Origin: Thermoanaerobaculia bacterium | GTDB taxonomy: Bacteria; Acidobacteriota; Thermoanaerobaculia; Multivoradales; J023 | NCBI GenBank assembly: GCA_036397835.1 | Contig: DASWIG010000188.1 | Location: forward strand, 18,964-82,963 | Reading direction: 5' to 3' | Length of the DNA stretch: 64,000 nucleotides | Program-made: the position numbers and the translations under genes | Shown here: positions 1-56,399 of the stretch, one piece after another | Numbering within the stretch: the first letter of the stretch is position 1 | Layout: every line of letters begins with the position of its first letter | The notes under the pieces: generated by a model | Databases searched by the model: none | What the model was told of the DNA's origin: nothing | Seen by the model: only the letters and a program-made list of their open reading frames with translations

Positions 1-3000
1 CTCCCGCGCCCGGACGATGTCGGAGGCGCGCAGGGGCTCGCCGCTGAGCAGCATCAGCCGCAAGGCGGCGCCCGAGCTCGGCGGCGGCGTCAGCAGCCAC
101 GACCGCAGCAGCGTCGGCACGGCGCTCAGCACCGCGCTCGCCTTGTGGCGCACGAGGTCGGCGAGCTGAGCCGCCGGATCGCCGAGCGCCGCGCGTTCCG
201 GAAACACCACACGCGCTCCCGCCGCGAGCGGCCCCAGCACGTCGCGCACCGAAGCGTCGAACGACGCCGCCGCGACCTGGAGCACGGTGTCGCGTGCGCC
301 GAGGCGGCAGCGCCGGATCAGGTCCACAAGGTAGCTGACCGCCGCGTGGTGGCTTGCCATCACGCCCTTCGGCGCGCCGGTGGATCCCGAGGTGTGGTAC
401 ACGAAGGCCAGGTCGGCGGCGTCGGTTCCGCTGTCGGCGCCGAAGCGGACGGCCGCGGGGACGGGCTCGCCGCGGCCGTGGGGCCTCCCTCGCGGATCGA
501 TCAGGATTCGTCCCGGCGCCTCGGGCACGCGCGGGCAAAGCTGAGCGGAGGTCACGACCAGGCGCGGGCCCGGACCGGCCAGCGCCTCGTACAATACCCG
601 CGAGTGACGCGCGGCCGGGTGAGAAGGATCGAGAGAAACGAACGCACCGCCCGCTTTCAGGATTCCCAATTGCGCGACCGCCAGCTCGGGTGAGCGCTCG
701 CAGCAGCATGCCACGCGGACCTCGCGCCGCACGCCGAGACGCCGTAGCCGACAGGCGAGGCGATCGGCCCGCCGAAGAAGCTCGGCATAGCTCAGGGCGT
801 TTGCGCCGACGACCGCGGCCACGGCGTCGGGAGTGCTCACGGCTTGGCGTTCGACGAGCTCGTGAAGGCCGTGGCGGTGCGGCGGAGCCGGCGCGGGCTG
901 CCCCCACTCGAACAGCGTCTGGTGGCGGTCGCCGCGTCCCAGGAAGGCCAGGCGCGAGAGCGGCCGGCTGCCCTCCAAGGCCTCGCCGAGCAGGTGCCTC
1001 AGATGCCTCGACAGACGGTGGATCGTCGTGGCGTCGAAGAGCTCTCTGCGATACTCGATCGTAGCGTCCGTGGTACCGGCCGCCTCGCCCAGCCGCAAAG
1101 TGAGGTCGAAGCGGCTGGCCACGCCGCCGCCTGGTGGGAGCGCGTTGAATCGCGTTCCGGAGGCTTGCTGTTCCAGCCGTCGCGGGTTGTTCTGCTGGAC
1201 GACCATGACCTGGAAAAGCGGCGTATGAGTCAGGTCACGCTCGGGCTGGAGCTCCTCCACCAGTTTCTCGAAGGGGACCTCTTCATGAGCATAGGCGTCC
1301 AGGGTGACCCGCCGTACGCGATCCACCAGGTCTTCGAAGGTGAAAGCGCCATCGAAGACCGTGCGCAAGACCAGGGTGTTGACGAAGAAGCCGATCAGCG
1401 GCTGCGTTTCAACGGTGCCGCGTCCTGCCACCGCCGTCCCGACGCTGATGTCCGCCGAGCCCGTATAGCGCGAGAGCAACGCCTTGAAGAGCGCGAGCAT
1501 GCCCATGAACAGAGTCGCCCCCCGCCGGCGGCAGAGCCGGCGCAAGGCCTCAACTTGCGGCTCCGGAAAGCGCATGGCCCAGCCGCCGCTCGCCGTTCCC
1601 GCCGCCGTCCCTCGGGGACGGTCGACGGGAAGCTCCAACAACGCGGGCGCGCCGTGGAGCCGCGCTCTCCAGTAGGCCAGCAGGGACCTCAGAGTCTCTC
1701 CCTGGAGCCATCGGCGTTGCCACGCGGCGTAGTCCGCGTACTGGATCGCCGGCTCCGGCAACGGCGACGGGTCGCCTCGCAGCGCGGCCCCGTAGAGCGC
1801 CGTGAGCTCCGCGAAGAGCAGGCCCACCGACCACGCATCGGAGACGATGTGATGGATCGAGAGCAGGACGAGGCTCTGGTCGTCGGCGAGCCGTACCAAC
1901 CGGACCCGGAGCAGCGGGGGCCGGCGCAGGTCGAAGGGAAGCCGCGCGTGGTCGACGGCGAGCCGGGCCGCCTGGCGCTCGCCGAGATCCGTCGGCAAGG
2001 CCCCGAGATCGACGACGGACAAAGGAAACGGAGCGCAGGGCGCCACTCGAGCGAAAGGCTCGCCGCCGGCGGCATGGAATCCGGTTCGCAGCGCTTCGTG
2101 CCGGCGGACGACCTCGGTCAGGGCGGCCGCCAGCACCGCCGGGCGCAGCTCGCCCTCGATCCGCAGCGCGGAGACCACGTTGTAGGCATGGCTTGCCCCC
2201 TGGAGCTGATCCAGGAACCAGAGCCGATGCTGGGCGAAGGACAGCGGCAGCCGGTCCGACCGCGCGACGCGCTTGAGGGGAGGGACCGCGAGCGCTCTGC
2301 CGGCCCGCTTCGAGCGCTCGACGCTGGCTGCCAGGCCGGCCACCGTCGGCGCTTCGAAGAGGTCGCGCAAGACGACGTCGACGCCGAAGATCTCGCGAAT
2401 TCTCGCCAACACCCGGATCGCCGCCAGGGAATCGCCGCCGAGCTCGAAGAAGTCCTGGTGCAGGCCGCAACCGTCGAGGTGGAGCGTCTCGCTCCAGACT
2501 CCTGCGACCAGCTCCTCGACCGGCGTGGGCGCCGTCTCGCCGGCGCTCTGCGTCTCGGCCTCGCCGGGCAGGGGCAAGGCCTGGCGATCCACCTTGCCGT
2601 TGTCGGTGAGCGGCAACTGGCCGAGCAGGACGACCGAGCCGGGCACCATGTACTCCGGCAGGATCGCCTTCAGGTGCCGGCGCAGCTCCTCGCCGTCGAT
2701 CTCGGTTCCCGGCTGTGGCACCACCCATGCCCCCAGGCGCCGGTTGAAGCGCTCGCCGCCGACCGCGGACGCCACCGCGGACTGAACCGCGGGATGGCGA
2801 GCCAGCGCCGCCTCGATCTCTCCGAGCTCGATGCGATGCCCTTGGATCTTGACCTGGAAGTCCTCGCGGCCGAGAAACTCGACGTCGCCGGTCGGAAGAT
2901 AGCGGCCGACATCACCCGTCCGGTAGAGCCGCTCGCCGCTTCGCGGATGCGACAAGAAGCTCTTGCGGGTCGTTTCCTCGTTCCGCCAGTAGCCGTGGGC

Positions 3001-6000
3001 CAGTCCGGCGCCGCCGATGAAGAGGTCTCCCGGCACCCAGGTCGGGCGCGGCTCGAGCCGATGGTCGAGGACGCAGACCGTCTGATTCGTCATCGGCCGG
3101 CCGTAGGGGATGCTCGTCCACCACGGGCTCACGGCGGCGATCGGGTAGAGCACCGACCAGATGGACGCCTCCGTCGCGCCGCCCAGGCTGATCACTTCCA
3201 GACCGGCGACGATCTCTCGGACGGCGTCTGGAAGCTGTACCGGGATCCAGTCTCCGGACAACAGGGCCAGCCGCAGGGAGCTCAGGTCGACGTCGGGCCG
3301 GCCGGCGGCGTGCTCCACCAGCATTTCGAGCAACGCCGGAACCGAATTCCACAGGGTCACGCCGTGGCGCCGGATCAGCGCCGCCCAGGCCGCCGGATCG
3401 CGGGCCGCCCCGGGCTCGGGCACGACGACGGCCCCTCCCGCCGCCAGCAGCCCGAAGACGTCGTACACCGACAGGTCGAAGCTCAGCGAGGAGAGCGCCA
3501 GCACTCGGTCCCCGGCCCCCACGTCGAACCGGCGATTGACGTCGAGGATCGTGTTGACCGCGCCGCGGTGGTCGATCATCACCCCCTTGGGCGTGCCGGT
3601 GGAGCCGGATGTGAAGATCACGTAGGCGAGGTGATCCGGCCTGATCTCCACGGGCTCGGGACGGGTGTCCGCCGAGAGCTCCGGTTCCTCCTCGTCCACC
3701 GTCACGCGGCTGACCGTCTCGGGCCATTCGAGCCCCTCGTCGAGCCAGGGCTGGGTCACCGCCAGCTCGACCTCGCCCAGCTCCAGAAGCGCGCGTCGAC
3801 GGTCGGCGGGCAACGCCGGATCCACCGGCAGATACGCGGCGCCCGCCTTGAGAACCCCGAGCACCGCGACCACCTGCTCCCAACCCTTCTCCATGACCAC
3901 GGCGACGAGGCGGTTCGGCCGTGCGCCGCGCCGGCGCAGGCGTCGGCCCAACTCGTCCGAGCGCCTCGCCAGCGATCCGAAGCTCAGGGTCAGGCGGGGC
4001 GCGATCACCGCGTCGCGGGCCGGATCTTCGTCCGCCCGGCTCTCGAAGAGAGCGTGCAGCAACTCGTTGCCGGGCGGCGCCACGGCCGCGTCGATCGCCC
4101 GGCCTGCCAATTGGGCCTCCGGCACCAGGGAGACGTGCGTCTCTCGCCAGGCTCCGTCGCCCTCGGCCAGGCTCTCGAGCAACCCGCAGAAGGCGCCAAA
4201 CATGTCGTCGACCATCCCGGGAGGGAAGAGCTCGTCCACCACGTCCCAATTGAAGACCAGCGCGCCCTGACGTTCCGCGACCTGGTGATCGAGGTACACC
4301 TGAGGGGTCTGGCTGATCCCGAACTCGACCGTGCCGGCGCCCTGTTGCGGCGTCGCTCCGCGATCCTGCGATGAGACTTCGGAGCCCGCGCGGGTGTCGG
4401 TCATGGTCAGGGTGCTCGTGAAGACGATGGGCATTGCCGCCCGCGCCCCCCGGCCCCGGCCCTGGCGTCCCAGGTCCCGAAGCACTTGGACGCCGCTGAA
4501 GTACCGGTGGTCGAGGTCGTCCCAGAGCTGGTTCTGAATCCTCCGGGCCCGTGCTTCGAAGGGCTCCGGCCAGGCGGTGTCGATTTCGAGGAGGACCAGC
4601 GAGGTGAAGTCGCCAATGAGCTCGTTGACCTGAGGATGAAGCTCGAGGCGATGGAAGAGCGTGAGGTTGAGGGTGAAGCGGGGGCTCCGAGACCAGGTCG
4701 CCAGGACCTCGGCGAAAGCGGCCAGCACGAGGCCCGACGGAGTCAGGCCGAGGCGGCTTCCCCGCCCCTTCAGCCGCTGCCAGGAAGCCGCCGCCACGGT
4801 TCCCCGGCGGCGCACGAAACGCGGCCGCTTCACGGCCGAGAGGCTCTTGGCAAGGGGCAGGTCCGGCGCCGGCGCGAGGTCCGGCACCCGCCGGCGCCAG
4901 TAGTCCCGGGCCGCGAGGTATCGCGACGACTCCTTGAACGACTCCTCAGCCAGGATGTAGTCGCGAAAGGAGATCTCGAGCGGCGGCCGCCGGGCTTCGG
5001 GCTCGCGGTAGAACAGCCTCATCTCCGACAACAGCAGGTCCCAGCTCCAGGCGTCGCCGATGAGCAGGTCGAAGCTCACGTGGACCCGCACCCGCCCGTG
5101 GTCGAGCAACGAGGCACGCACGTCGAACAGCGGCCAGCGGTCCGCCGGCAAGATCTGGTGCGACATGCTCCGGCGCAGGGCGTCGAGCGCCGCCGAGCGG
5201 GCCTCCTCCGAGGCGCGGCGCAGGTCCAGGATCCCGACCCGGAATCGAGGCACCGCGGCCAGGATCCGCTGGCGGCCGTCCGGCTGGACGACGGCTCGCA
5301 ACATGTCGTGGCGTTCGATCAACCGTTGCCAGGCGCGCTCGAGGCGCTCGACGCTCAGGTCGTGGCTGTCCAGCTCCACGTAGATGTGGGTCGCCACGTT
5401 GCCCAGCTCGAAGTCGCCGCCGCGGCCGAGCCAGTAGGCCTGCTGAACGTCGGTCAGCGGGAAGGGAAGGTGCCGCCGGTCCGGGTCGGGAACCAGCTCG
5501 GGCAGCCATGCCGCCGTTCCCGCCGGAATCCCGCGCGAGTCGGGCGTGAGGCTTCCGACAAGAGCCGCCATCGCGCTGACCGTCGGAGCTTCCAACAGCT
5601 CGCGCAGGGCGACCTGAGCCCCGGTCTTCTCGCGCAATCGTTCGCCCAGGCGGGTGGCCAGAAGCGAATGCCCGCCGAGCTCGAAGAAGTCGTCGTGGAC
5701 GCCCACCGGCCGTACCCCGAGGAGCTCCTCCCAGACCTCCGCAACCTCGCGCTCGATCTGGCCGCGTGGCGCGAGATAAGGGGTCGCGACGTCGGACCGG
5801 CGCGACACGGCCTCGGTGGAAGCGTTCACGCCGGCGCGCGGACCCGCGCCCTCTCCCGCTCCGGCGTCGTCCCCCTCGGTGTCACGCACCGCGACGCTTC
5901 GCCTGGCTTCGATCCAGTATCGTTGGCGCTCGAAGGGATAGGTGGGTAGGGGGACCTTGTGACGGCTCTCGTCGGCATGGAACGCCAGCCAATCCACGTT

Positions 6001-8565
6001 CGCGCCCTCTAGCCAGAGGCGGCCCAGAGCCTGGATCAGGAAGGCGACGTCCGAGCCCGGATGTCGACCTGGGCGGACCGAGCTCAGCACGGCAGCTCGT
6101 CCTGAGTGCCCGGGATGCCGGCGCGCCAGGGTGCTCAACGTACGGCCGGGGCCCACCTCGAGCAAGATCCGGTCCGAGTCTGAAAGGAGCACCTCAAGGT
6201 TGTCGCTGAATCGCACCGTCGACCTCAGGTGCCGTACCCAGTAACTCGGATCGGTGGCCTCCGCGGGACGGATCCAGGTGCCGGTGAGATTGGAAAGGAA
6301 CGGGATTTTCGGCGGGCACAGGACGATCTCACCGAGCACGGAAGCGAACGGCTCCGACACGGGATCCATTGCCGCCGAGTGGAAGGCGTGAGAGGTGCGT
6401 AGCCGCCGGGTCTCCACTCCCCGCGCGCGCAGCTCGCTCTCGAGGTCCGCGAGCGGCTCCTCCGGGCCCGAGACCACGCATTGCCCCGGCACGTTGACCG
6501 CGGCGAGCGACAGTCCCTCCGGCATGAAAACCGCCAACGCATCCTCGGCGATCTCGACCGCCATCATCCCTCCTCTGCTCATCCCCTGCATCAGACGCCC
6601 GCGGGCGGCGACCAGCGGGAGCGCGTCCTCAAGGGTGAAGACGCCCGCCAGACACGCGGCCACGTACTCGCCGATCGAATGGCCGGCCATCGCTCGCGGC
6701 GCGATCCCCCAGTCCATCCACAGTCTGGCCAGGGCGTATTCGAAAGCGAAGAGCGAGCTCTGGGCGAGGGCGGTTTCACGCAAACGTTCCTCGGCCGCTT
6801 CCCGCGAAGGTCCCCCGCCCAGGAAGAGCGCCTCGCGCAAGTCCTCCTTCAAGTGGGGCGCGAGCAGCTCCGCGCAGCGATCGATTTCCCGCCGGAAGAC
6901 TCGTTCTTCGGCGTAGAGCTCACGTCCCATGTCCACGTACTGGGAGCCCTGGCCGGGGAAGAGGAAGGCGACCTCCCGATCGAGCTCTTCCCGGCAGCCC
7001 GTCGCCAATCGCGGCGGGTCGCCGCCGCGGAGCACGTCGAGCGCGTCGGGGACGTCCGAGCACACGGCGAAGCGCCGGTGTGGGAGACGCCGGCGGCCGA
7101 CCTGACAGGTGAACGCCACGTCGGCGAGGTCGCTGTCGCCGTTCGCTTCGAGATGGTCTGCGAGATTGCAGGTGACCGTCTCCAAGCCCGAAGCGCTACG
7201 GGCCGACGTCACGATCAGGTGCCAGGGCCTGGAGGTTCCCGAGGCCGGGCGCTCGGGCGCCTCCTCGAGCACCACGTGGGCGTTGGTGCCGCCGATCCCG
7301 AACGAGCTGACCCCGGCGCGCCGGGATCCGCCAGGCGCGGTCCACGGTCGTAGCGCCGTGTTGACGTAGAAGGGGCCCTGGTCGAGCTCGAGCCGGGGAT
7401 TCGGTGATTCGAAGTGGAGGCTCGGCGGGATGAGCCGACGATCGAGGCAGAGCGTGGTCTTGATCAAACCCGCGATGCCCGCTGCCGTGCTCAGGTGCCC
7501 GATGTTGGTCTTTACCGAGCCGAGCGCGCAGGCGTTGCGAGCGCCGTTGGTGCTGGCGAAGGCCTGGTTCAGGGCCTGGACCTCGATGGGATCCCCCAGC
7601 GGAGTCCCGGTGCCGTGGGCCTCGACGTAGGTGATCGTCTCCGGATCGATCCCCGCCAGGGTCTGAGCCGCCTGGATCACCTGCGCCTGTCCGGCGACGC
7701 TGGGCGCGGTATAGCCGACCTTCATCCCTCCGTCGTTGTTGATCGCCGTACCTTTGATGACGGCGTACACGCGGTCCGCATCGGCCAGCGCGTCGCCGAG
7801 CCGTTTGAGCACCACGACGCCCAGACCGTTGCCCCCCAGAGTCCCACGGGCTCTTTCGTCGAAGGCCCGGCAATGGCCATCGGGGGAGTAGATGCCCCCA
7901 TCGGCGTGCAAGTAGCCGCGGACCTGGGGGAGGGTCACCGACACGGCGCCGCTCAACGCGACGTCGCAATCGCCGGCCAGCAAACCCTGACACGCCATGT
8001 GGACGGCCACCAGCGCGGTCGAGCACGCGGTCTGGATGACGACGCTCGGCCCGGTCAGGTTCAGCTTGTAGGAAACCCGCGTCGCCAGGTAGTCCTTGTC
8101 GCTCGCGAGGACCGATTGATAAATCCCCACGGAGCGCAGGATCTCCGGGCGCGAGTAGAGGTTGTAGACGTAGGTATTGCGCTCCACGCCGGCATAGACG
8201 CCGATCATTCCGGGATAGGTCTGGGAGTCGCAGCCGGCGTCCTCCAGCGCTTCCCACGCACATTCCAGGAACAGGCGGTGCTGCGGGTCGGTGATCTCGG
8301 CTTCGCGGGGTGTGAAATCGAAGAAAGCGGCGTCGAAGTCCGCGACACCGTCGAGGACGGCGTTGGCTTTGACGTAGTTGGGATCGCGCAAATCGGACTC
8401 GGGAATTCCGGCCGCCGCCAGCTCCTCGTCGGAGAAAAAGGTGACGGACTCCACGCCGTGGCAGAGGTTGCGCCAGAACTCTTCGACGTTTCGCGCGCCC
8501 GGAAACCGCCCGGCCAGGCCGACGATGGCGACGTCCAGGCCTCCGATCTCTTCGTCGGCGCTCAT
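1..8565 (-). CDS. Hybrid PKS-NRPS megasynthase, partial (C-terminus beyond left edge): KS-AT(malonyl-type)-ACP-Cy-A(Cys-type)-PCP-C-A(truncated by window)
   Basis: Manual translation of the minus strand from the ATG at 8565-8563 (ATGA overlap with the TGA of the upstream NRPS at 8564-8562) gives MSADEEIGGLDVAIVGLAGRFPGARNVEEFWRNLCHGVES.... This frame has no stop down to nt 1, so the ORF track (which requires a stop) omits it; no ORF in this frame appears in the track. KS active-site Cys in TACSTALVAVHMACQ at ~8005-8050. AT GHSIGE with the His codon at 6681-6679 and HAFHS at ~6390, the signature of malonyl-CoA-specific ATs. ACP FFELGGHSLLATRL at ~5660-5700, directly after the post-AT linker (PTYPFERQRYWIE), with no KR or DH. 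Cy domain FPLTDVQQAYWLGRGGDFELGN (5401-5460) and DLLIGDAWS (~5045-5070). A domain LAYVIFTSGSTGTPKGV (~3595-3640) with the Cys-type fingerprint (SFDLSVYDVFG, WNSVPAL, LLSGDWIPV, GGATEASIWS). PCP FFELGGDSLAAIRV (~2430-2460). C domain HHIVSDAWS (~1840-1860). Second A domain LAFVYHTSGSTGAPKGV (~365-420) runs off the edge. Confidence 0.85.
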   Translation of the reverse strand, partial: MSADEEIGGLDVAIVGLAGRFPGARNVEEFWRNLCHGVESVTFFSDEELAAAGIPESDLRDPNYVKANAVLDGVADFDAAFFDFTPREAEITDPQHRLFLECAWEALEDAGCDSQTYPGMIGVYAGVERNTYVYNLYSRPEILRSVGIYQSVLASDKDYLATRVSYKLNLTGPSVVIQTACSTALVAVHMACQGLLAGDCDVALSGAVSVTLPQVRGYLHADGGIYSPDGHCRAFDERARGTLGGNGLGVVVLKRLGDALADADRVYAVIKGTAINNDGGMKVGYTAPSVAGQAQVIQAAQTLAGIDPETITYVEAHGTGTPLGDPIEVQALNQAFASTNGARNACALGSVKTNIGHLSTAAGIAGLIKTTLCLDRRLIPPSLHFESPNPRLELDQGPFYVNTALRPWTAPGGSRRAGVSSFGIGGTNAHVVLEEAPERPASGTSRPWHLIVTSARSASGLETVTCNLADHLEANGDSDLADVAFTCQVGRRRLPHRRFAVCSDVPDALDVLRGGDPPRLATGCREELDREVAFLFPGQGSQYVDMGRELYAEERVFRREIDRCAELLAPHLKEDLREALFLGGGPSREAAEERLRETALAQSSLFAFEYALARLWMDWGIAPRAMAGHSIGEYVAACLAGVFTLEDALPLVAARGRLMQGMSRGGMMAVEIAEDALAVFMPEGLSLAAVNVPGQCVVSGPEEPLADLESELRARGVETRRLRTSHAFHSAAMDPVSEPFASVLGEIVLCPPKIPFLSNLTGTWIRPAEATDPSYWVRHLRSTVRFSDNLEVLLSDSDRILLEVGPGRTLSTLARRHPGHSGRAAVLSSVRPGRHPGSDVAFLIQALGRLWLEGANVDWLAFHADESRHKVPLPTYPFERQRYWIEARRSVAVRDTEGDDAGAGEGAGPRAGVNASTEAVSRRSDVATPYLAPRGQIEREVAEVWEELLGVRPVGVHDDFFELGGHSLLATRLGERLREKTGAQVALRELLEAPTVSAMAALVGSLTPDSRGIPAGTAAWLPELVPDPDRRHLPFPLTDVQQAYWLGRGGDFELGNVATHIYVELDSHDLSVERLERAWQRLIERHDMLRAVVQPDGRQRILAAVPRFRVGILDLRRASEEARSAALDALRRSMSHQILPADRWPLFDVRASLLDHGRVRVHVSFDLLIGDAWSWDLLLSEMRLFYREPEARRPPLEISFRDYILAEESFKESSRYLAARDYWRRRVPDLAPAPDLPLAKSLSAVKRPRFVRRRGTVAAASWQRLKGRGSRLGLTPSGLVLAAFAEVLATWSRSPRFTLNLTLFHRLELHPQVNELIGDFTSLVLLEIDTAWPEPFEARARRIQNQLWDDLDHRYFSGVQVLRDLGRQGRGRGARAAMPIVFTSTLTMTDTRAGSEVSSQDRGATPQQGAGTVEFGISQTPQVYLDHQVAERQGALVFNWDVVDELFPPGMVDDMFGAFCGLLESLAEGDGAWRETHVSLVPEAQLAGRAIDAAVAPPGNELLHALFESRADEDPARDAVIAPRLTLSFGSLARRSDELGRRLRRRGARPNRLVAVVMEKGWEQVVAVLGVLKAGAAYLPVDPALPADRRRALLELGEVELAVTQPWLDEGLEWPETVSRVTVDEEEPELSADTRPEPVEIRPDHLAYVIFTSGSTGTPKGVMIDHRGAVNTILDVNRRFDVGAGDRVLALSSLSFDLSVYDVFGLLAAGGAVVVPEPGAARDPAAWAALIRRHGVTLWNSVPALLEMLVEHAAGRPDVDLSSLRLALLSGDWIPVQLPDAVREIVAGLEVISLGGATEASIWSVLYPIAAVSPWWTSIPYGRPMTNQTVCVLDHRLEPRPTWVPGDLFIGGAGLAHGYWRNEETTRKSFLSHPRSGERLYRTGDVGRYLPTGDVEFLGREDFQVKIQGHRIELGEIEAALARHPAVQSAVASAVGGERFNRRLGAWVVPQPGTEIDGEELRRHLKAILPEYMVPGSVVLLGQLPLTDNGKVDRQALPLPGEAETQSAGETAPTPVEELVAGVWSETLHLDGCGLHQDFFELGGDSLAAIRVLARIREIFGVDVVLRDLFEAPTVAGLAASVERSKRAGRALAVPPLKRVARSDRLPLSFAQHRLWFLDQLQGASHAYNVVSALRIEGELRPAVLAAALTEVVRRHEALRTGFHAAGGEPFARVAPCAPFPLSVVDLGALPTDLGERQAARLAVDHARLPFDLRRPPLLRVRLVRLADDQSLVLLSIHHIVSDAWSVGLLFAELTALYGAALRGDPSPLPEPAIQYADYAAWQRRWLQGETLRSLLAYWRARLHGAPALLELPVDRPRGTAAGTASGGWAMRFPEPQVEALRRLCRRRGATLFMGMLALFKALLSRYTGSADISVGTAVAGRGTVETQPLIGFFVNTLVLRTVFDGAFTFEDLVDRVRRVTLDAYAHEEVPFEKLVEELQPERDLTHTPLFQVMVVQQNNPRRLEQQASGTRFNALPPGGGVASRFDLTLRLGEAAGTTDATIEYRRELFDATTIHRLSRHLRHLLGEALEGSRPLSRLAFLGRGDRHQTLFEWGQPAPAPPHRHGLHELVERQAVSTPDAVAAVVGANALSYAELLRRADRLACRLRRLGVRREVRVACCCERSPELAVAQLGILKAGGAFVSLDPSHPAARHSRVLYEALAGPGPRLVVTSAQLCPRVPEAPGRILIDPRGRPHGRGEPVPAAVRFGADSGTDAADLAFVYHTSGSTGAPKGVMASHHAAVSYLVDLIRRCRLGARDTVLQVAAASFDASVRDVLGPLAAGARVVFPERAALGDPAAQLADLVRHKASAVLSAVPTLLRSWLLTPPPSSGAALRLMLLSGEPLRASDIVRARE
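4150..5470 (-). other. Heterocyclisation (Cy) domain following the PKS ACP
   Basis: Cy signature motifs FPLTDVQQAYWLGR (5401-5460) and DxxxxDxxS (DLLIGDAWS) in place of HHxxxDG; followed by a Cys-type A domain. Confidence 0.8.
6080..8565 (-). other. KS-AT didomain of the leftmost PKS module (KS ~7290-8565; AT ~6080-7050)
   Basis: KS N-terminus IVGLAGRFPGA...FW..L and active-site Cys TACST (~8040); AT GHSIGE (6681) and HAFHS (6390). Approximate domain limits. Confidence 0.8.
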
Positions 8566-11500
8566 CGGCGAGTTCCTGTCGGCTGTCGGGCTCGGCGTCG
8601 GCTGAGCCGCTCTCTGCCGGCTCGCAGCCCGGCGAGGTGCTTGCGGCGCCGCTCCTCAGCCCGCGGATCGGGGGAAGCGCGATCGAGGTGCGCCGCCAGG
8701 CTGGCGATCGTCGGGTATTGAAAGAGCTCGATCAGCGTCACTCGGTCGTCGATCTGGTCGCGCAGCTTGCCATGGACCCGGAGCAACAATAACGAGTGTC
8801 CGCCGAGGTCGAAGAAACTGTCGTGGATGCCGACCTGGTCGAGGCCGAGCTCTTCCCGCCAGATCCGTGCCACGGCGCGCTCGACCCGGTTGCCCGGGGC
8901 GCGGTACGCCGTCGCAAGCTCGGGCCTGGCGCCGTCCGGCTCGGGCAAGGCATTGCGCGCGACCTTTCCGCTGGAGGTGAGAGGCAGCGCGTCGAGGTGG
9001 ACGAAGGTCGCCGGGACCATGTGCTCGGGCAAGCGTTTTCTGAGGTCCGCGAGGAGTGCCGCGTCGGCGGCCGGCCGGCCGTCGTTGGACACCACGTAGG
9101 CGACCAGGCGCTGGTCCCCCGGAGCCGTCTCGCGGACCACCGCCACGGCCTGCCGTACCCCGGGCTGCTCCTCGAGAGCCGCTTCGATCTCGCCGAGCTC
9201 GATCCGGAAACCCCGCAGCTTGACCTGGAAGTCCAGACGGCCGAGGTACTCGATAGCGCCGTTCGTGCCGAAGCGAGCCCGGTCACCGGTCATGTAGAGG
9301 CGGCCCCCGGGCTCGATTGCCGCGGGATCGGGCACGAATTTCCCGGCGCTCAGCGCCGGGCGGGCGAGGTAGCCGCGGGCAAGTCCCATACCGCCGATGC
9401 AGAGCTCGCCGGCGACGTTGATCGGGACCGGTCGCAGCTCAGCGCCGAGGATCAGGATTCGGGTATTGGCGATCGGCCGGCCGATCGACACCCGGCTCAG
9501 CGCCGGCGGGCAGGCCCATGAGGTGACTTCGACGGCGGCCTCGGTCGGACCGTAGAGGTTGTGAAGCTCGGCCGCGAGACGCTGGCGGAAACGGCCCACG
9601 ACGTCGGGCGTGAGGCTCTCGCCGCTGGCGATCACTCTTCGTACGCTGCGGCAACGCTCGAGCTCCGGCTGCTCCAGGAACACCCGAAACATCGACGGCA
9701 CGAAATGCAGGGTCGTGACGTCGTTCCGAGAGATCAGGCCGGCCAGGTAGGAGCCGTCCTTGTGCCCCTCGGGACGCGCGACGACCAGACGTGCTCCGGT
9801 GATGAGCGGCAAGAAAAGCTCCCAGACCGAGACGTCGAAGCTGAATGCCGTCTTGTGCAGAATCTTCTCGTCGGCGCTGATGCGGTGGGCGTCCTGCATC
9901 CACCGTAGCCGGTTGCAGATCGCTCGATGCGTGTTGACCACGGCCTTGGGCTTGCCGGTCGATCCGGAGGTGTAGATGACGTAGGCCGGGCTGTCGGGAT
10001 CGGCGCCGGCCCGCGGAGCGGGCGGTTGGAGCGGCTCGGTCTCCGGACGGAGGGCGTCGAGCCTCAAGGCCGGAATCCGAAGATTCTCCGGTACCGGGAC
10101 GCCGGCCAAGAGCACTTTCACCCCGGCGTCTTCGAGCATGAAGGCCAACCGCTGCTCGGGGTAGCCGGGCTCGAGCGGGAGGTAGGCGGCGCCCGACTTG
10201 AGCGTACCGAGCAGAGCGACGACCATCTCGATCGAACGCTCGGCGCAGACTCCGACCACCTCTTCCGGACCGGCGCCCAGCACGCTCAGATCGCGGGCCA
10301 GTCGGCTCGCCTTCGAGTCGAGCGCGCGGTAGCTCAGCCACCGGCCCTCGAAGGTGAGCGCCACCGCCTCGGGCGAGCGCTCGGCCCGCTCCTCGACGAG
10401 CTCGTGGAGCAGCCCCGAGGCTCGGGGAATCGCCGTGTCGTTCCACTCTCTCAGCAACTGCTGCCGCTGCGCCTCGCCGATCAGCGAAAGGCTTTCGATC
10501 TCGGCGCCAGGCCGTTCGACGATTCCTTCGAGCAGCCGGGCGAGGTGGCCCCACAACCGCCGCGCCGTCGTGGCGTCGAACAGATCGGTCTTGTACTCGA
10601 TGTAACCGTGCAGACCTGCCCTTTCCTCGCCGATCGCCAGGGTGAGGTCGAAGCGGGACGTGCCGTTGCTGACCGCCATCATTCGCAACGTCATACCGGG
10701 CAGCTCGCGGGGCTCCGGCGCGGCGTTCTGGAAGACGAACATCACCTGAAAGAGCGGAGAGTGCCCCAGATCTCGCCGGGGCTGAAGCTCTTCAACCAGT
10801 TTCTCGAACGGCAGGTCCTGATGCTCGTGAGCACCCAGCATGGCCTCCCGCACCTGCGCCAAGAGCTCGACGAAAGTCATACTCCGGGCGAGCACGCCAG
10901 GAACAACCAACGTATTGACGAACATTCCGATCAGGTTCTCCGTTTCCGGCCGGATACGGCCAGATACCGGAATTCCGATGCACAGCCTCTCTTGCCCCGA
11001 GTAACGCGCTAACAGCAGCTCGAAAGCTCCCAGGAAGATCATGAAGAGAGTGGCCCCCTCTCTGCGGCCGAGCCTGCGGAGCGCATCGGTCAGGTCGCCG
11101 GGCACGCCGAAGAACCTGCGCGTTCCGCGCACGGTCGTCACCGGTGGTCGGGGACGGTCGATCGGAAGGTCCAGCACCGGGAAAGAGTTGCCCAGGCGGC
11201 GCCGCCAGAACTCCAGACGCTGCGCGAGCAACTCGCCGCGCATACGCGCGCGTTGCCAGACGGCAAAGTCGGCATACTGGGCAGATAGCTCAGCGAGCTG
11301 CGGCGCCCGACGGTCTCGGTACGCCTGGTAGAGCTCCCGCAGCTCACGGGTCAGGACGTCGAACGACCAGGCATCGCAGACGATGTGATGAATCGTCATC
11401 ATCAGTACGTGCTCGTCGAGGCTCAAGCGCACGAGGCTTCGGCGCCACAACGACCCCTGCGCCAGGTCGAACGGCAATCGTGCCATGCTCGTGAACAGTC

Positions 11501-13685
11501 TCGCCACGACCTGTTCGCGGATGGCGGGCTGAATCGTGCAAAGATCGACGATGGCGAGCGGCGAGGACGCGGCGGCGCGCGCTGCCTGCACCGGTTCCCC
11601 GTTCTCTAGCAGAAACGCCGTTCGCAAGATCGAGTGACGAGCCGTGATCTCGTTCAAGCTCCGCTCCAGCGCCGCCGGGTCGAGCTCGCCTTGGAGGCGC
11701 AAACCCAGAGGCAAGTTGTAGAGCGAGCTACCCGGAGTAAGCCGGTCCAAGAAGAGGAGCCGTTCCTGGGCGAAAGACAGGGGAATCCGCTCCTGCGGAG
11801 AGAGCCGCGGCAACGGCTCGAACCGAGCAACCGCTGGGCCTTCGTTACAGCGCAGTTTCTCGATCGCGTCCGCCATGCCTGCGATGGTCTCGGTCTCGAA
11901 GATCTGGTTCATGGGTATCTGAGTACCGAGAATCTGCGTCACACGGCCCAGCATCCGCAAGGCGGTCAAGGAGTGCCCGCCGAGATCGAAAAAACTGTCA
12001 TGGATGCCAACCATGTCGACTTGCAGGACCTCGGCCCAGATCTGCGCCAACAATTGCTCCACGACGGTGCGCGGCTCGCCGCCGGAAGGCGTAGCGCCGC
12101 TCGACTCGAGAGACGAGGGGTCGGGCAGGGCCAGCCGATCGATCTTGCCGTTCGCCGTTTTCGGCAGCTCGTCGAGTTGGACGTAGACAGAAGGAACCAT
12201 CGGCTCCGGCAGATCCTCCGCCAGGAAGGCGCGCAGCTCGGCGATCGCTACTGCACGCCGCGCAGCAAAGTAAGCGCACAAGTAGAGCGTCCCGGTCCGG
12301 TCCCCACGAGCCACGACCGCCACCTCTCGGATCTGCTCGTGGTCCAACAGACGATTCTCTACCTCCGTCACCTCGACGCGCACGCCACGGATCTTCACCT
12401 GCTGGTCCTTGCGGCCCATGAGCTCGAAATTACCATCGGGCTCTATGCGCCCCAGGTCGCCGGTGCGATAGACCACGTCGTTGGGATCGCGGCTGAAGGG
12501 GTTCCTGGTGAAGACCGCGGCCGTCAGCTCCGGCTTGCCGAAGTAACCCAGGCTGCAATAAGGCGTGCGGATCAGGATCTCTCCCAATTGACCTGGGGAG
12601 CACGGACGGTCCACCTCGTCCACGACCACGGCTCGCGCTCCGTGCATCGGCTTGCCGATGGGCACGGTGCGGCGATTCTTGTCCGCAGGCTTGACGAAGT
12701 AGAAGAACTTCGTCATAGTGGTCTCGGATGGGCCGTAGAGATTGACCAGTTGCACTCGGTCGCCACGGAGGCTCGTCCATTTCTCAACGTCCGAGGGCAG
12801 CAAATGCTCACCAGCCAGCAGCACGAATCGTAGCGCATCGAAGCCACGCGGCTCAAGAGCGGGATCGAGAATCGTGCGGAACAGAGACGGCACGGCGTGT
12901 ACGACTTCGAGCCGCTCGGCATCGATCCAATCGACGAGAGCCTGGGCGGTCAGCGAGGTTCCTCTTCCCGGGGGCACACAAACGGTGCCGCCGACCGCAA
13001 GCGGAACGAAGACGTCGCGCAAGAAGGCGTCGAAAGCGAAGTTCGTCAGTTGACTTACACGTACGCCGGACTCGATCCCCAGCGTGTCGACCTCCCAGCC
13101 GACATAGTGATCGATGGCCTTGAGGCGGCCGGAAATGCCCTTCGGCTCTCCGGTCGAGCCGGAGGTGAAATAGATGTAACAGATCTGGTCGGGATCGGCG
13201 TCTCGGAGCCGGCGCTGCGGTTCCCAGTAGTCGTCGGCACGATGGCTGTACCGGCCCGTCTCCATGACGCGCAGGCTCCGTCCCGACTGGGCCAGAACAC
13301 CCAGCGCGACCTGCGGAAAGCCCTCGGGGAGGCAGCCGTCCAACGCCTCAACGAGGTCAACGGCGGCCAGGAAACCCGAGGGTTGGGCCGTTAGAATCAT
13401 CGATTCGAGCCGCCGCCGAGGCAGGCGAGCATCGAGCGGCACGAAAACGGTCCCGGACTTGAGGCACCCGATGACTGCCGTGATCGCATCGACGGGATCA
13501 GTGCAGCAAACGCCGATCCTGTCGCCGGCCTTGATGCCGCGAGAAAGAAGGAAGTTGGCAACATTGCTCGACCGGTCGTCGAGATCGGCGTAGCTCACTC
13601 GTGCCTGCGCCGTGTCGATGGCGGTCGCCGATCGGTGACGGTCCACCGCTCGGCAGAATATGCGGTCAATGCTTTCGAATGCCAT
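8562..13685 (-). CDS. NRPS, A-PCP-C-A-PCP (~1707 aa); ends with PCP that hands over to the downstream KS
   Basis: The ORF track extends the start to a TTG at 13715, but an ATG at 13685-13683 lies 4 nt after the upstream gene's TGA (13692-13690: ...ctgTGAgataATGgca...) and gives N-terminus MAFESIDRIFCRAVDRH, a normal A-domain start. A cores ICYIYFTSGSTGEPKGI and AYVIYTSGSTGKPKAV; PCPs FFDLGGHSLTALRM and FFDLGGHSLLLLRV; C domain LSFAQERLLFL...HHIVCDAWS. Stop TGA at 8564-8562 overlaps the ATG of the next gene (ATGA). Confidence 0.85.
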   Translation of the reverse strand: MAFESIDRIFCRAVDRHRSATAIDTAQARVSYADLDDRSSNVANFLLSRGIKAGDRIGVCCTDPVDAITAVIGCLKSGTVFVPLDARLPRRRLESMILTAQPSGFLAAVDLVEALDGCLPEGFPQVALGVLAQSGRSLRVMETGRYSHRADDYWEPQRRLRDADPDQICYIYFTSGSTGEPKGISGRLKAIDHYVGWEVDTLGIESGVRVSQLTNFAFDAFLRDVFVPLAVGGTVCVPPGRGTSLTAQALVDWIDAERLEVVHAVPSLFRTILDPALEPRGFDALRFVLLAGEHLLPSDVEKWTSLRGDRVQLVNLYGPSETTMTKFFYFVKPADKNRRTVPIGKPMHGARAVVVDEVDRPCSPGQLGEILIRTPYCSLGYFGKPELTAAVFTRNPFSRDPNDVVYRTGDLGRIEPDGNFELMGRKDQQVKIRGVRVEVTEVENRLLDHEQIREVAVVARGDRTGTLYLCAYFAARRAVAIAELRAFLAEDLPEPMVPSVYVQLDELPKTANGKIDRLALPDPSSLESSGATPSGGEPRTVVEQLLAQIWAEVLQVDMVGIHDSFFDLGGHSLTALRMLGRVTQILGTQIPMNQIFETETIAGMADAIEKLRCNEGPAVARFEPLPRLSPQERIPLSFAQERLLFLDRLTPGSSLYNLPLGLRLQGELDPAALERSLNEITARHSILRTAFLLENGEPVQAARAAASSPLAIVDLCTIQPAIREQVVARLFTSMARLPFDLAQGSLWRRSLVRLSLDEHVLMMTIHHIVCDAWSFDVLTRELRELYQAYRDRRAPQLAELSAQYADFAVWQRARMRGELLAQRLEFWRRRLGNSFPVLDLPIDRPRPPVTTVRGTRRFFGVPGDLTDALRRLGRREGATLFMIFLGAFELLLARYSGQERLCIGIPVSGRIRPETENLIGMFVNTLVVPGVLARSMTFVELLAQVREAMLGAHEHQDLPFEKLVEELQPRRDLGHSPLFQVMFVFQNAAPEPRELPGMTLRMMAVSNGTSRFDLTLAIGEERAGLHGYIEYKTDLFDATTARRLWGHLARLLEGIVERPGAEIESLSLIGEAQRQQLLREWNDTAIPRASGLLHELVEERAERSPEAVALTFEGRWLSYRALDSKASRLARDLSVLGAGPEEVVGVCAERSIEMVVALLGTLKSGAAYLPLEPGYPEQRLAFMLEDAGVKVLLAGVPVPENLRIPALRLDALRPETEPLQPPAPRAGADPDSPAYVIYTSGSTGKPKAVVNTHRAICNRLRWMQDAHRISADEKILHKTAFSFDVSVWELFLPLITGARLVVARPEGHKDGSYLAGLISRNDVTTLHFVPSMFRVFLEQPELERCRSVRRVIASGESLTPDVVGRFRQRLAAELHNLYGPTEAAVEVTSWACPPALSRVSIGRPIANTRILILGAELRPVPINVAGELCIGGMGLARGYLARPALSAGKFVPDPAAIEPGGRLYMTGDRARFGTNGAIEYLGRLDFQVKLRGFRIELGEIEAALEEQPGVRQAVAVVRETAPGDQRLVAYVVSNDGRPAADAALLADLRKRLPEHMVPATFVHLDALPLTSSGKVARNALPEPDGARPELATAYRAPGNRVERAVARIWREELGLDQVGIHDSFFDLGGHSLLLLRVHGKLRDQIDDRVTLIELFQYPTIASLAAHLDRASPDPRAEERRRKHLAGLRAGRERLSRRRARQPTGTRR

Positions 13686-13689
13686 TATC

Positions 13690-16600
13690 TCACAGGGCCT
13701 CGCAGAACCCTGCAAGGACCGTGTCCTCTTCCGCTTCGCTCAGCAGCGACAACTGCGAAAGGCGCAGGGTGGGGTCGTCGACCATTTTCTGCATGAGCTC
13801 CCGGTAGTGGAGGTGGAGGCGTTCAATTGCGGGCCGGTCGTAGATATCGGTGCTGTACTCCGTAGCGACCACCAATCGGCGGCCCGCCGCCGACACGAAG
13901 AGCGTCAGGTCGAAGTTGGCGGAGACCCGCTCGGTCCCGATCGTCCTCAGGACGAGGCCAGGAACCCGTGTCGGAGGCTGCGGGACGTCTTGGAACGAGA
14001 ACTTGGCCTGGAAGAGGCCCTGGCCTTCTGCCCGACGTCTCCCCTGGAGATCCTCCAGGACTCGCTCATAAGGAACGTCCTGGTGGGCGTAGGCCTCGAG
14101 CGCCACCTCCCGGACGCGTTTCAGGACCTCGCGAAAGCTCGGGTCCCCCGTCAGGTCGCTGCGCAAGACGAGGATGTTGGCGAAATAGCCGATCGTCTCC
14201 TCGAGCTCCCGGCGCCGGCGATTGGCGACGTTGGTGCCGACCGCGATGTCGCGCTCCCCCGTGTAGAGAGCCAAGAGCACCTTGAAGGCCGCGACCATGG
14301 TCATGAAGAGGGTGGCGCCCTCCTGCCGGCTGAGCGCTCGGAGGCTCGCGGCGAGCCGCTCTGAAAGCTCGATCTGCGCCACCGCGCCTCGAAACGTCGG
14401 TCTGGTGGGCCGCCCGCGGGCGCCGGGAAGGTGGAGGATCGGGGGAGCGGTTTTCAACCGCCGGCGCCAGTAGGCCAACTGCGCCTCGAGGACGTCGTGG
14501 CTCAGCCAGCGCCGTTGCCACCGCGCGAAGTCGGGATACTGAACGAGGGCGTCCGACGCCGGGGCGGGCCGGCCCTCGATCCGGGAGCTGTAGAGACGGA
14601 CGATCTCGGCCACCAGGACCGCCATCGACCAGGCGTCGGAGACGATGTGGTGCATCGAGAGGACCACCGCGTGCTCCTCCGGTGCCAGGCGCAAGACGCA
14701 GACTCTGAGCAGAGGAGCGCGAGCGAGGTCGAAAGGGAGATCCAGCAGCTCCCGGATCCGGCGCTGGGACTCCCGGCCGCGGAGAGGCTCGGCCAGGGCC
14801 GTGAGGTCCAGAACCGGCAGCAATGACCTCCATTCGGAAGAGACGATCTGTGCGACCTTGTCGCCGTCCTCGACGAAGGTGGTGCGCAGCGCGTGGTGGC
14901 GGCGGCTCGCCTCGTCGAAGGCGGCGTGGAGAGCGGCAAGGTCCAGGCTCCCTTCGAGGCGTACGAGAGCGGGGATCTTGTAGCCGAGACGGTTCGCGTC
15001 GACCCGGTGGAGGAACCACATGCGCTCCTGGGAGTGGGACAGCGGCATTCGCGTTCCCGGGGGGAAACGCTCGATCGGCTCGGACTCGATGGCCGGGATG
15101 TGCGCCGTGCTTCTCGCATCTTCGATCTCCGCAGCGAATTTCGCCAGCGTGGGCGCCTCAAAAAGGCTCCTCAACGGGAGCTCGATTCCGAAGGTCTCGC
15201 GGACCCGCGATATCACCTGGGTAGCGAGGAGCGAATGGCCGCCGAGAGCGAAGAAGTCGTCCTCGCTCCCGAGCCCTTCAAGCCCCAGGACCTCGCCCCA
15301 GATACCGGCGAGCAGCTCCTCGGCCGGAGCACGGAGAGGCTCGCCGGCTCTGCGTCGGCCGGCCGCGGACCTCGTCAGGAGCTCGGCTTGGATGGAGGCG
15401 CGGTCCAGCTTGCCGTTCGCGGTGACCGGCAGGGCGTCCATCGTGACGATGGTGGAAGGGACCATGTAGTCGGGGAGCTTGCGGGTCAGGAAGCGGCGGA
15501 TTTCCGGGACCTCGGGCACCGCTCCGATCGACGGGACGATGCAGGCGGCGAGGCTCTTGTCCTCGGAGGCATCCGTGACGACGACAGCCACCGCCTCGTG
15601 AACGGCCTCGTGCCGGCACAGGACGTTCTCGATCTCTCCCAGCTCGATGCGAAAGCCTCGGATCTTCACCTGTTGATCGAGGCGTCCCAGGAACTCGAGG
15701 GTTCCTCCCGGCCAGAAACGGCTGCGGTCTCCGGTCCTGTAAAGGCGTCCTCCCCGCCGCTGGCCGAATGGATCCGGGATGAACTTCCGGGCGCTCAACA
15801 CCGGCTCGGAGGCGTATCCCGAGGCCAGGCACTGCCCGCCGATGAAGAGGTCGCCGGGCACCCCGGCGGGGCAGGGCTCGAGCGTTGCATCGAGCACGTA
15901 GTAACAGGCGTTGTCGATCGGCCGGCCGTAAGGAATGCTCCGCCACCGCGGGTCCACGGCGGTGACGACGTGGAAATTCGACCACACCGTGGCTTCGGTG
16001 GCGCCCCCGAGCGCGACGAGCCGGGCTGCGGGAAAAACTCTCCCGAGCCTGGCCGGCAGCGTCGTCGGGACCCAGTCGCCGCTCAGGAAGACGAGCCGCA
16101 GGCACGCCGTGGACAGGCCGTCTTCAGGCAAGAAGGGGATGAGCTGCTGCAACGCCGCCGGCGCCGAGTCCCAGAACGTGACCGGCTCCTGGGCCAGCAG
16201 GCGGGCGAGCTCGGCAGGCTCGCGGACCTCTTCGTTCGAGGCCACCCGCACCGAACCGCCGGCGGCGAGCACGCCGAAGACGTCGTAGACCGACAGATCG
16301 AACGACACCGACGTGACGAAGAGAATGCGGTCCGCCGGCCCCACGTCGAAGGTCCGGTTGACCCATCGGATGAGGTTGATTACCGGACCGTGACGGACGA
16401 CGACGCCCTTCGGCGTCCCGGTCGTGCCCGAGGTGAAGATGGTATACGCGAGGTCCGCAGCGCTCGCCGTCACGGCGGGGCTCCAGGTCGGTCGCCGCTC
16501 CAGGTCGCGGGCACTCGAGACCCGCGCCTTCCCTCCGGACCTTCCCCGGGCCCGTAACGTGCCCTCGGTCGCCTCCGCGTCCGCGACGACCAGGTGCTCG

Positions 16601-31489: not shown

Positions 31490-31824
31490 GGCGACAGGCT
31501 GTGTAGCGACAGGCTGTGTAGCGACAGACCGTGTATCGACCCCCAAGTCGTCTCCTTCATGCCTGGGCCTCCGGATACACCGACAACGTCGCCGGCCGTC
31601 CTCGTGGCCGCCGACGGACCCACGCTGACCATCAGTGGCCCCTATCCTACCCGGCCGTCTTTCCGGGCGCAAGAGCGCCCCCGGCCTCCGCGCTGAATCG
31701 GCGCCGTCGGGCGGACTCGCGCTTCGCCTTCGACGCGATCCCTGGTAGCCTTGGGCCTCCGAAGCGCTCGGCGGGCTGGGGACCCGCAGCCGGCCCTCGG
31801 GGCGCTCTGGGTTGGTAGCGCCGG
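31490..31824. promoter_or_regulatory. Divergent intergenic/promoter region between the giant NRPS operon (-) and the glycosyltransferase-like gene (+)
   Basis: ~335 nt with no credible coding frame (both overlapping track ORFs are R/P/G-rich). Contains the tandem 15-mers and a second direct repeat, TGGGCCTCCG, at 31564-31573 and 31752-31761. No -35/-10 consensus assigned. Confidence 0.5.
31492..31536. repeat. Three tandem 15-bp direct repeats: CGACAGGCTGTGTAG (31492-31506), CGACAGGCTGTGTAG (31507-31521), CGACAGACCGTGTAT (31522-31536), plus a partial fourth copy CGACCCCC
   Basis: Read directly from the sequence. Lies immediately upstream of the putative GTG start of the giant NRPS, inside the divergent intergenic region. 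Confidence 0.9.
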
Positions 31825-47377: not shown

Positions 47378-48448
47378 TCAGGCGTTGCCGGACCACATCT
47401 CGTTCATCGCCGTCAGCAGACGCCTCTCTCCCCGGTACGGGTTGCGTCCGTGGGCGGTCAACATGTTGTCGAGGAGCAGCAGGTCGCCCTGCTGCCAGGG
47501 GAAAACGGCCGCCTCGGCCCACGACGCGCTGCGAAGGTGCCCGACGACCTCGGGCTCGATCGGCGCGCCGTCGCCGTAGAAAGTGCCGTGGGGGAGGCCC
47601 TCCTCTCCCAGTCGGGACTCGAGCGCGCCGCGCACCTCCGGATCGAGGTTCGAGGCGTGAAAGAGCACCACGTGATTGAACCAGACCTCCTCGCCCGTCT
47701 CCGGATGACGGGCCAGAGCGTCACGCACCGCGCGGGTGCGCAGGCGGTTTTCGCCACGCCATTCAAAGGTGATGCCCGAGGCCGAGCAGAAGGCTTCGAC
47801 CTCGGCGCGCCGGTCGGTCTTGAACACGGTGCGCCAGTCAATCCCCAGGCCTTCGCCATAATTGCGCATGTAGAGCACCTTGCGCCGCCGGAAGCGCTCG
47901 CGGACCTGGGGGTCGATGCGCTGAAGGATTTTGCGCGTATCGGCGATGGGCGTCTCTCCGCCTTCCTCCGCCGGAATCTCGCAGAAGAAGAATAGGTTCA
48001 TCGGCCAGGTCTTGGAGTAGGCGAGCTCGCTGTGGAGGAAAATGTCCTGATCGGCCGGATAGTCCGTGGAGGTGTAGACGTTGCCGCGGATAACGCTGCG
48101 CGGCGTCGTGGCATCTCGGTAGACCGCCAGGTCCTCTCGCGAGAAGGCCCGGACCACGGCTTCGAGCTCATCGACCCCCGACAGGTCGAAACCGCGAAAC
48201 AGCACACCGCCGACGGCTCGCTGCCAAGAGCGAGCCACGGCTCGGTTGTCGCTAAGCCAAGCGGCGAGGTCCACGCCGTCGGCGGCCGGGCGCGCCACCA
48301 CGGGCAATCGGCCGTCGGCGGAGGGTTCGAATCGCACCAGGTGCTCCGCCGCGCTCCTCGGAGCCGCGCGAGCGATCCCTGATGGGAGCTTCTTGGGAAG
48401 ACGCTTCGACGTTGTTGCCGTGCTCAATTGCGCACCTCCATGTCGCAT
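47378..48448 (-). CDS. TauD/TfdA-family Fe(II)/2-oxoglutarate-dependent dioxygenase (SyrP-like tailoring enzyme)
   Basis: 356 aa from the ATG at 48448 (overlaps the last 8 codons of the PKS-NRPS; the track ORF is over-extended to 48610 through an R/G-rich stretch). FLHSELAYSKTWPMNLFFFCEIPAEEGGETPIADTRKI and C-terminal LLLLDNMLTAHGRNPYRGERRL are typical of the TauD fold as found in NRPS clusters. Confidence 0.7.
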   Translation of the reverse strand: MRHGGAQLSTATTSKRLPKKLPSGIARAAPRSAAEHLVRFEPSADGRLPVVARPAADGVDLAAWLSDNRAVARSWQRAVGGVLFRGFDLSGVDELEAVVRAFSREDLAVYRDATTPRSVIRGNVYTSTDYPADQDIFLHSELAYSKTWPMNLFFFCEIPAEEGGETPIADTRKILQRIDPQVRERFRRRKVLYMRNYGEGLGIDWRTVFKTDRRAEVEAFCSASGITFEWRGENRLRTRAVRDALARHPETGEEVWFNHVVLFHASNLDPEVRGALESRLGEEGLPHGTFYGDGAPIEPEVVGHLRSASWAEAAVFPWQQGDLLLLDNMLTAHGRNPYRGERRLLTAMNEMWSGNA

Positions 48449-56387: not shown

Positions 56388-56399
56388 CTGTGAGATCCT

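Follow-up and report, generated by a model that had tools for sequence, protein, structure and literature searches.

A reduction-free PKS module followed by a heterocyclisation domain in the terminal gene of a Thermoanaerobaculia assembly line

G1 and its reading frame

The stretch of Thermoanaerobaculia DNA analysed here (the window; 64,000 nt, 69.3% GC) is occupied by one minus-strand operon, which fills 98.5% of it; the single gap carries a plus-strand GT2 gene. Read from right to left, the operon comprises G9, an FkbM methyltransferase gene, G8, a TauD-family gene, G6, G5, G4, G3, G2 and G1. Here, we focus on G1, the terminal hybrid gene of polyketide synthase (PKS) and nonribosomal peptide synthetase (NRPS) modules (1..8565, minus strand). 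Its 3' end runs off the window at base 1, leaving 2855 of 3453 codons inside. An earlier note on this DNA had described an open minus-strand frame of at least 2855 codons that is coupled to the upstream NRPS gene and absent from the program-made list of open reading frames (ORFs). On translation, the frame starting at the ATG at 8565 indeed runs for 2855 codons down to base 1 with zero stops. Bases 8565-8562 read ATGA, so that the ATG of G1 overlaps the TGA of the upstream NRPS ORF (G2, 8562..13715). G1 is missing from the list because the ORF tool leaves out ORFs that run off either end.

High-GC DNA yields long spurious ORFs, and the opposite strand of this locus has ORFs of up to 1176 amino acids (aa), which could suggest that the G1 frame is itself a GC-rich artefact rather than a gene. 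The stop-free run of 2855 codons speaks against this, its chance being ~1e-25 by our own arithmetic if ~2% of codons are stops at 69% GC. Third codon positions have a GC content of 86% in the G1 frame, compared with 73% and 50% for the two alternative frames. Moreover, Pfam matches within G1 reach E-values of 2.7e-139 (AMP-binding), 7e-128 (Condensation), 6.2e-70 (ketoacyl-synt), 2.4e-50 (Acyl_transf_1) and 1e-32 (PP-binding), and the identical gene is called on several independent metagenome contigs. The third-position GC, the Pfam matches and the independent gene calls together refute an artefact. Hence, G1 is a genuine, edge-truncated gene, the last of a giant NRPS-PKS assembly line.

Domain order and 3' end of G1

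Domains were called with Pfam profiles and an exemplar-based phmmer map, and their positions are given as aa of the G1 ORF. Together, they give, inside the window, a ketosynthase (KS), an acyltransferase (AT), a carrier domain (CP), a heterocyclisation domain (Cy), a Cys-type adenylation (A) domain, a second carrier, a condensation (C) domain and a second A domain that is cut, i.e., KS-AT-CP-Cy-A(Cys)-CP-C-A in the order that the earlier note had claimed. All G1 features lie on the minus strand. The KS with the KS-AT linker (7030..8565, aa 1-512) matches ketoacyl-synt, Ketoacyl-synt_C (2.7e-43) and KAsynt_C_assoc and has an intact catalytic triad formed by Cys179 (TACST), His (EAHGTGT) and His (NIGH). 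The AT (5926..6966, aa 534-880; Acyl_transf_1) is a cis AT with GHSIGE at aa 628 and the malonyl-type HAFH at aa 726. It is followed by the first carrier domain, CP1 (5536..5775, aa 931-1010; PP-binding, best stretch 940-1003).

The AT and CP1 are separated by 51 aa, and this distance of only ~50 aa leaves no space for a reductive domain between them. In the Pfam scan of G1, no ketoreductase (KR), dehydratase (DH), enoylreductase (ER), methyltransferase (MT) or oxidase (Ox) family is found. The same scan does detect such families elsewhere in the operon, namely KR and DH in G8 and an Ox of the nitroreductase type in G4. The Ser of CP1 sits in FFELGGHSLL, which resembles an NRPS peptidyl carrier protein (PCP) rather than a typical acyl carrier protein (ACP); the carrier after the KS of ClbK has the same motif. 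Thus, the minimal PKS module proposed previously holds for KS, carrier and AT, with both AT motifs intact and no reductive domain, while the carrier is NRPS-like and not the typical ACP implied. Within the homolog set, PKS carriers that precede a C or Cy domain have the NRPS-type GGHSL, with His before the Ser in 42 of 61, and ClbK behaves likewise; carriers that precede a KS have GxNS (11 of 12).

The Cy domain (4111..5460, aa 1036-1485), assigned from the phmmer map, PDB relatives and motifs, follows the PKS module directly, as had been noticed before. Its motifs are FPLT, DLLIGDAWS (at aa 1166), GDFT and QTPQVYLD, and DLLIGD replaces HHxxxDG. The best solved relatives are the Cy domains of EpoB (5t7z, E 6e-107), Irp2/HMWP2, BmdB and PchE, spanning 6e-107 to 1e-65; ordinary C domains match only at 1e-11 or worse. 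The spacing from TPSG to GDFT is 44 in the G1 Cy versus 30 for the Thr/Asp cyclodehydration pair of BmdB, and we do not equate the two.

The first A domain (2581..4065, aa 1501-1995) matches AMP-binding at 1507-1860 and AMP-binding_C at 1916-1991, and Pfam detects no nitroreductase/Ox insert in it. Specificity codes of A domains were extracted with a GrsA fragment as ruler. The code of the first A domain, DLYNLSLIWK, is identical to that of both Cys modules of G4 and is taken here to denote Cys by the established Stachelhaus code. The second carrier domain, CP2 (2308..2535, aa 2011-2086; phmmer map), contains FFELGGDSL. It precedes a full-length C domain (961..2265, aa 2101-2535; Pfam Condensation, best stretch 2104-2532) of 435 aa that has an intact HHIVSD and covers positions 3-436 of 456 of the Condensation profile. 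The N-terminal part of the second A domain comes next (1..873, aa 2565-2855; phmmer map) and is cut by the window edge. The Cys-type A domain and the ensuing C-A that the earlier note had read are thus in place.

Leftwards of base 1, where the end of the gene and a release domain had been expected, exact-protein look-ups with G3 and G2 lead to two contigs of the Joint Genome Institute (JGI), L068 and L069, that match the window at 100% identity across 23,685 bp. They run 1,439 bp beyond base 1, the G1 frame staying open for 479 further aa, and G1 is called at 3453 aa on them. The tail of G1 in this exact strain holds NQYGPTE, the A10 Lys, a third carrier (GGHSL) and the thioesterase (TE) nucleophile GWSMG at aa 3251. 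Furthermore, the homolog P0001 is 97% identical to G1 and also 3453 aa long, has the order KS-AT-CP-Cy-A-CP-C-A-CP-TE and matches Pfam Thioesterase at 3182-3421 (E 7.8e-33). Its contig, L001, has 98.7% DNA identity to the window. There, a MacB/FtsX permease gene follows P0001 directly, then a cytochrome/TPR gene, an FG-GAP/ASPIC gene and a separate LanB-like locus. Full-length G1 is a protein of 3453 aa, KS-AT-CP / Cy-A(Cys)-CP / C-A-CP-TE, of which ~600 aa (the rest of the A domain, CP and TE) lie outside the window. It is the terminal gene and provides 3 of about 18 carrier-defined modules. Hence, the statement that the cluster would lack its downstream half unless G1 is counted is right in that G1 is the last gene and too strong in its extent, as G1 supplies only three modules, with the ~600 aa off-window.

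The PKS-to-Cy junction and its chemistry

Cy comes right after KS-AT-CP in 26 of the 120 best homologs as well. The AT and CP are 46-80 aa apart in 24 of these 26; almost all have HAFH, and the carrier resembles that of an NRPS. In 7 of the 26, the following A domain has an embedded Ox. The orthologs P0028 and P0019 (56% identity) share the ten-domain string of full G1 and keep the synteny G3-G2-G1-MacB-cytochrome/TPR-FG-GAP. The small tailoring genes between G3 and G2 vary in these orthologous clusters, with Cupin_8 in one and Bac_luciferase plus Asn synthase in the other. The names on the best homologs are overwhelmingly those of Thermoanaerobaculia and Acidobacteriota metagenome-assembled genomes (MAGs). 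Given its recurrence in homologs and orthologs, the reduction-free PKS-to-Cy junction is a conserved, selected module type and no degenerate one-off.

These data also bear on whether the PKS module is used. Module skipping is known in assembly lines, and an inert or skipped PKS module would let the chain go straight from G2 to the Cy module. However, G1 has a full set of catalytic residues in its KS, AT and carrier, and orthologs of no more than ~50-56% identity conserve them, which argues for selection on function. We therefore give skipping next to no credence.

G1 is the last subunit of this co-directional line, and we propose that it probably adds an unreduced malonate unit, a Cys-derived thiazoline and one residue prior to TE release. 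The KS of G1 would accept the growing peptide from the PCP at the C-terminus of G2 (8664..8903, minus strand, by the domain map). The last residue of this chain is predicted to be Ser, and the last A domain of G2 (~8952-10415) has the Ser-like code DVWHISLVE. The cis AT would charge CP1 with malonate, and decarboxylative condensation would then give a γ-amino-β-ketoacyl thioester. Because no KR, DH, ER or MT is present, the β-keto group would stay. The Cy domain would join the β-ketoacyl chain to Cys on CP2 and cyclodehydrate the product to a 2-(2-oxoalkyl)thiazoline, probably as the enaminone tautomer. A thiazole, which the earlier note had allowed for alongside the thiazoline, is less likely since the G1 Cy module has no Ox; the ring would be left as a thiazoline if the Ox of G4 does not act on it in trans. 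The C-A-CP module would add one further residue, and the TE would free the chain by hydrolysis or cyclisation.

Several observations are in line with this proposal. The frame, the domain order, the motifs, the Cys code, the lack of reductive domains, the TE and the conservation of the module are observed. An Ox inside the next A domain, as in the seven homologs and in ClbK, is only sensible if the product of the Cy domain is a thiazoline. The EpoB Cy, the closest solved relative, is likewise supplied with its acyl group by a PKS carrier. In addition, an operon that fills 98.5% of the window leaves no room for a discrete KR or flavoprotein gene.

The KS-AT-CP-Cy layout is ordinary: numerous related genes have it, and so do characterised enzymes. 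Precedents came from the literature on CaeA2 and ClbK, none from a search on the literal domain string. ClbK, the colibactin PKS-NRPS (reference from E. coli CFT073, RefSeq WP_000222467.1), is KS-CP-Cy-A(Ox)-CP by Pfam and has no KR. As in G1, a reduction-free PKS module that is fed by an upstream NRPS carrier passes a β-ketoacyl group directly to Cy-A(Cys)-CP, and the two proteins share 41% (KS), 46% (Cy) and 51% (A) identity as well as FFELGGHSLL in the carrier after the KS. Unlike G1 with its intact cis AT and HAFH, ClbK has no Pfam-detectable AT (no Acyl_transf_1) and receives aminomalonyl in trans from ClbG (PMC5923317). Genes resembling the clbD-G set for aminomalonyl are not found in the window. 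ClbK further differs in the Ox inside its A domain (Nitroreductase, 1.7e-21), the product being a thiazole, and in that no C-A-CP-TE follows.

Two other systems also place a Cy domain after a PKS carrier. HMWP1 (Irp1) of yersiniabactin biosynthesis also combines KS-AT...ACP and then Cy on one polypeptide that ends in a TE, and its Cy is 40% identical to that of G1. In contrast to G1, HMWP1 is without a Cys A domain of its own, and the AT and Cy matches in irp1 are ~1030 aa apart. This stretch holds MT-KR-ACP, so that the β-carbon is reduced and methylated, which makes HMWP1 the reduced counterpart of G1. In epothilone biosynthesis, the EpoA ACP hands over to the EpoB Cy, so that the acyl donor sits on a PKS carrier as in G1. 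Here, the donor is a simple acetyl starter and not a β-ketoacyl peptide, and EpoB has an Ox domain and makes a thiazole.

The PKS-NRPS hybrids CaeA2, ColA2 and KnmA2 (caerulomycin, collismycin and karnamicin) share with G1 the string KS-AT-ACP-Cy-A(Cys)-PCP, an NRPS carrier before it and a C-A-PCP extension after it (PMC8149447, PMC9838390). In such enzymes, the β-ketoacyl group and a flavoprotein-oxidised dehydrocysteinyl group are joined by the Cy via a C-C bond to give a (sulfhydryl)pyridine. A pyridine would be compatible with G1 in that its first six domains match CaeA2, its C-A-CP-TE extension mirrors CaeA3 (PMC8149447) and an unreduced β-keto group is exactly what the CaeA2 chemistry requires. 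However, the CaeA2-type enzymes end in Ct, a C-like domain that is about one third shorter and has no catalytic His (PMC8149447). Ct recruits a clustered FAD-dependent acyl-CoA-dehydrogenase-like protein (CaeB1, ColB1, KnmD), and the product is a pyridine ring (PMC8149447, PMC9838390). G1 is devoid of this defining domain and has the full 435-aa C domain with HHIVSD directly before the A domain. Moreover, the flavoprotein gene is clustered in cae, col and knm (PMC8149447, PMC9838390) and absent from the whole region scanned for missing partners, i.e., the window, 10 kb downstream of G1 and the flanks of the two orthologous clusters (P0028 and P0019). Related KS-AT-CP-Cy modules carry thiazoline oxidase domains, and the starter of the CaeA2-type enzymes is picolinate or a small acyl group rather than a long peptide. 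With neither a Ct domain nor a flavoprotein partner, a pyridine route is disfavoured and very unlikely; the small probability that it retains is owed to the CaeA2 Cy, which keeps DxxxxD and looks like an ordinary Cy domain (PMC8149447).

The β-keto group might also be lost through a trans-acting KR or other tailoring, either on the carrier or after release, yielding a thiazoline with a β-hydroxy group (statine-like) or another modification. Tailoring in trans is frequent in NRPS-PKS clusters. The enzyme could lie in the ~14 kb upstream of G9 or elsewhere in the genome, and the orthologous clusters differ in their extra tailoring genes between G3 and G2. However, a KR-type gene is found neither in the window nor in the 10 kb downstream or the flanks of the two orthologous clusters, and the reduction-free module is conserved across 24 homologs. 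We thus regard a loss of the β-keto group as unlikely.

Retention of the β-keto group and formation of a thiazoline remain our preferred reading, and several points weigh against it. Substrate flow, keto retention, the thiazoline product and the release mode are deduced by collinearity, that is, chemistry is read from sequence alone. The same KS-AT-ACP-Cy-A-PCP string builds a pyridine from a β-keto group and Cys in CaeA2, the Cy of which resembles thiazoline-forming Cy domains, so that sequence cannot fix the outcome (PMC8149447). For G1, the 2-(2-oxoalkyl)thiazoline is accordingly put forward as what collinearity suggests. Other loci of the genome, the ~14 kb upstream of G9 included, may code for enzymes that act in trans. 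Furthermore, the code of the second A domain, DARSLSQMTK, obtained from the exact-strain continuation, is unassigned with respect to specificity. A junction of the G1 type might, as a long shot, even support non-canonical Cy chemistry on the retained β-keto group that needs no Ct or flavoprotein. The product could be a pyridine, a thiophene or another C-C-linked heterocycle, or else a stable enaminone-thiazolidine acting as a metal-binding or electrophilic warhead at the C-terminus of a ~16-residue lipopeptide.

The assembly line around G1

At the right edge of the window, G9 (56400-64000, minus strand) encodes Cstarter-A-CP-C-A-CP-C-A(luciferase-like insert)-CP and is cut. Its frame is open to base 63998 and encodes the C-domain N-terminal motif AQEQLWFLQRLDP. 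The listed start at 63869 is an artefact because the frame stays open beyond it and already codes for this motif. On contigs of the European Nucleotide Archive (ENA), full G9 is 3615-3617 aa long and its first domain is a C domain, perhaps of the lipo-initiation starter type. A protein search with a 1532-aa part of G9 returns generic NRPSs of at most 48% identity and misses the near-identical ortholog; against GTDB species-representative genomes, the best match of the G9 N-terminus reaches 49%, with hits to MAGs of Thermoanaerobaculia, Blastocatellia and others, and the species is not among these representatives. No JGI metagenome contig has an exact match to a 42-mer taken at the right end of the window; the JGI contigs stop inside G8, and the longer ENA contigs lie outside that collection.

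The third module of G9 carries a luciferase-like monooxygenase (PF00296, 1.7e-54; ~57663-58727, minus strand) inside an A domain with the Gly code DILQLGVIWK. This arrangement resembles the MOx-in-A layout of MtaG and MelG. Unlike in MtaG and MelG, the insert of G9 is mid-line and followed by a stand-alone methyltransferase, the FkbM-family protein of 307 aa (55464-56387, minus strand; PF05050, 2.4e-20) encoded between G9 and G8. This module and the FkbM methyltransferase could provide an α-hydroxy- or α-methoxy-glycine unit. The FkbM gene is concealed beneath a long spurious N-terminal extension of the ORF 48424..57582; the true start of G8 is the ATG at 55467 (2347 aa), in agreement with gene calls on other contigs.

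G8 (48424-55467, minus strand) has the order KS-AT-KR-DH-CP-C. Its DH (PF21089/PF14765) lies after the KR and not before it, an order that also occurs in one homolog, P0076. The TauD-family gene (47378-48610) lies between G8 and G6. G6 (44156-47362) is a stand-alone C*-A-CP with the odd code SSRDLTMLCK, which is without Asp235. G5 is (C-A-CP)x3-C on the minus strand. G4 (18374-31834, minus strand) encodes A-CP-C-CP-Cy-A-CP-Cy-A(Ox)-CP and holds the Cy-Cy pair, to which G1 adds the third Cy module that had been counted previously. Just ahead of the pair, at aa 971-1535, G4 has a C-CP module without an A domain; G6 and the adjacent TauD-family gene might supply this module in trans. G3 (C-A-CP-C) and G2 (8562-13715; A-CP-C-A-CP), both on the minus strand, complete the line up to G1.

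Downstream of G1, the trio of a MacB/FtsX permease, a multihaem-cytochrome/TPR and an FG-GAP/UnbV_ASPIC gene occupies 20359-27023 on L001, 20350-27197 on L002 and 20107-26318 on L003. The trio follows G1 in three lineages, among them G1 orthologs that are 56% identical to that of the window. It may be part of the cluster, with a role in export or resistance, or reflect merely conserved synteny. On L001, two Lant_dehydr_N (LanB-like) genes lie ~7 kb downstream of G1 (27023-30362), one with a weak PqqD match, and constitute a neighbouring locus of the ribosomally synthesised and post-translationally modified peptide (RiPP) class.

Annotation by complete ORFs only would lose the terminal three modules and give the first gene, G9, a wrong start, and a product predicted from it would be in error at either end. 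The β-keto/Cy junction is already known from ClbK and CaeA2 and therefore opens no new mechanistic question by itself. To our knowledge, the source phylum has essentially no characterised natural products, and a literature search for characterised biosynthetic gene clusters (BGCs) of Thermoanaerobaculia returned survey papers only. With G1 included, the assembly line would finish by adding an unreduced malonate unit and a third thiazoline, then one residue, ahead of the TE. The cluster represents a conserved family of BGCs in uncultured Acidobacteriota that is wholly uncharacterised and of some interest for genome mining.

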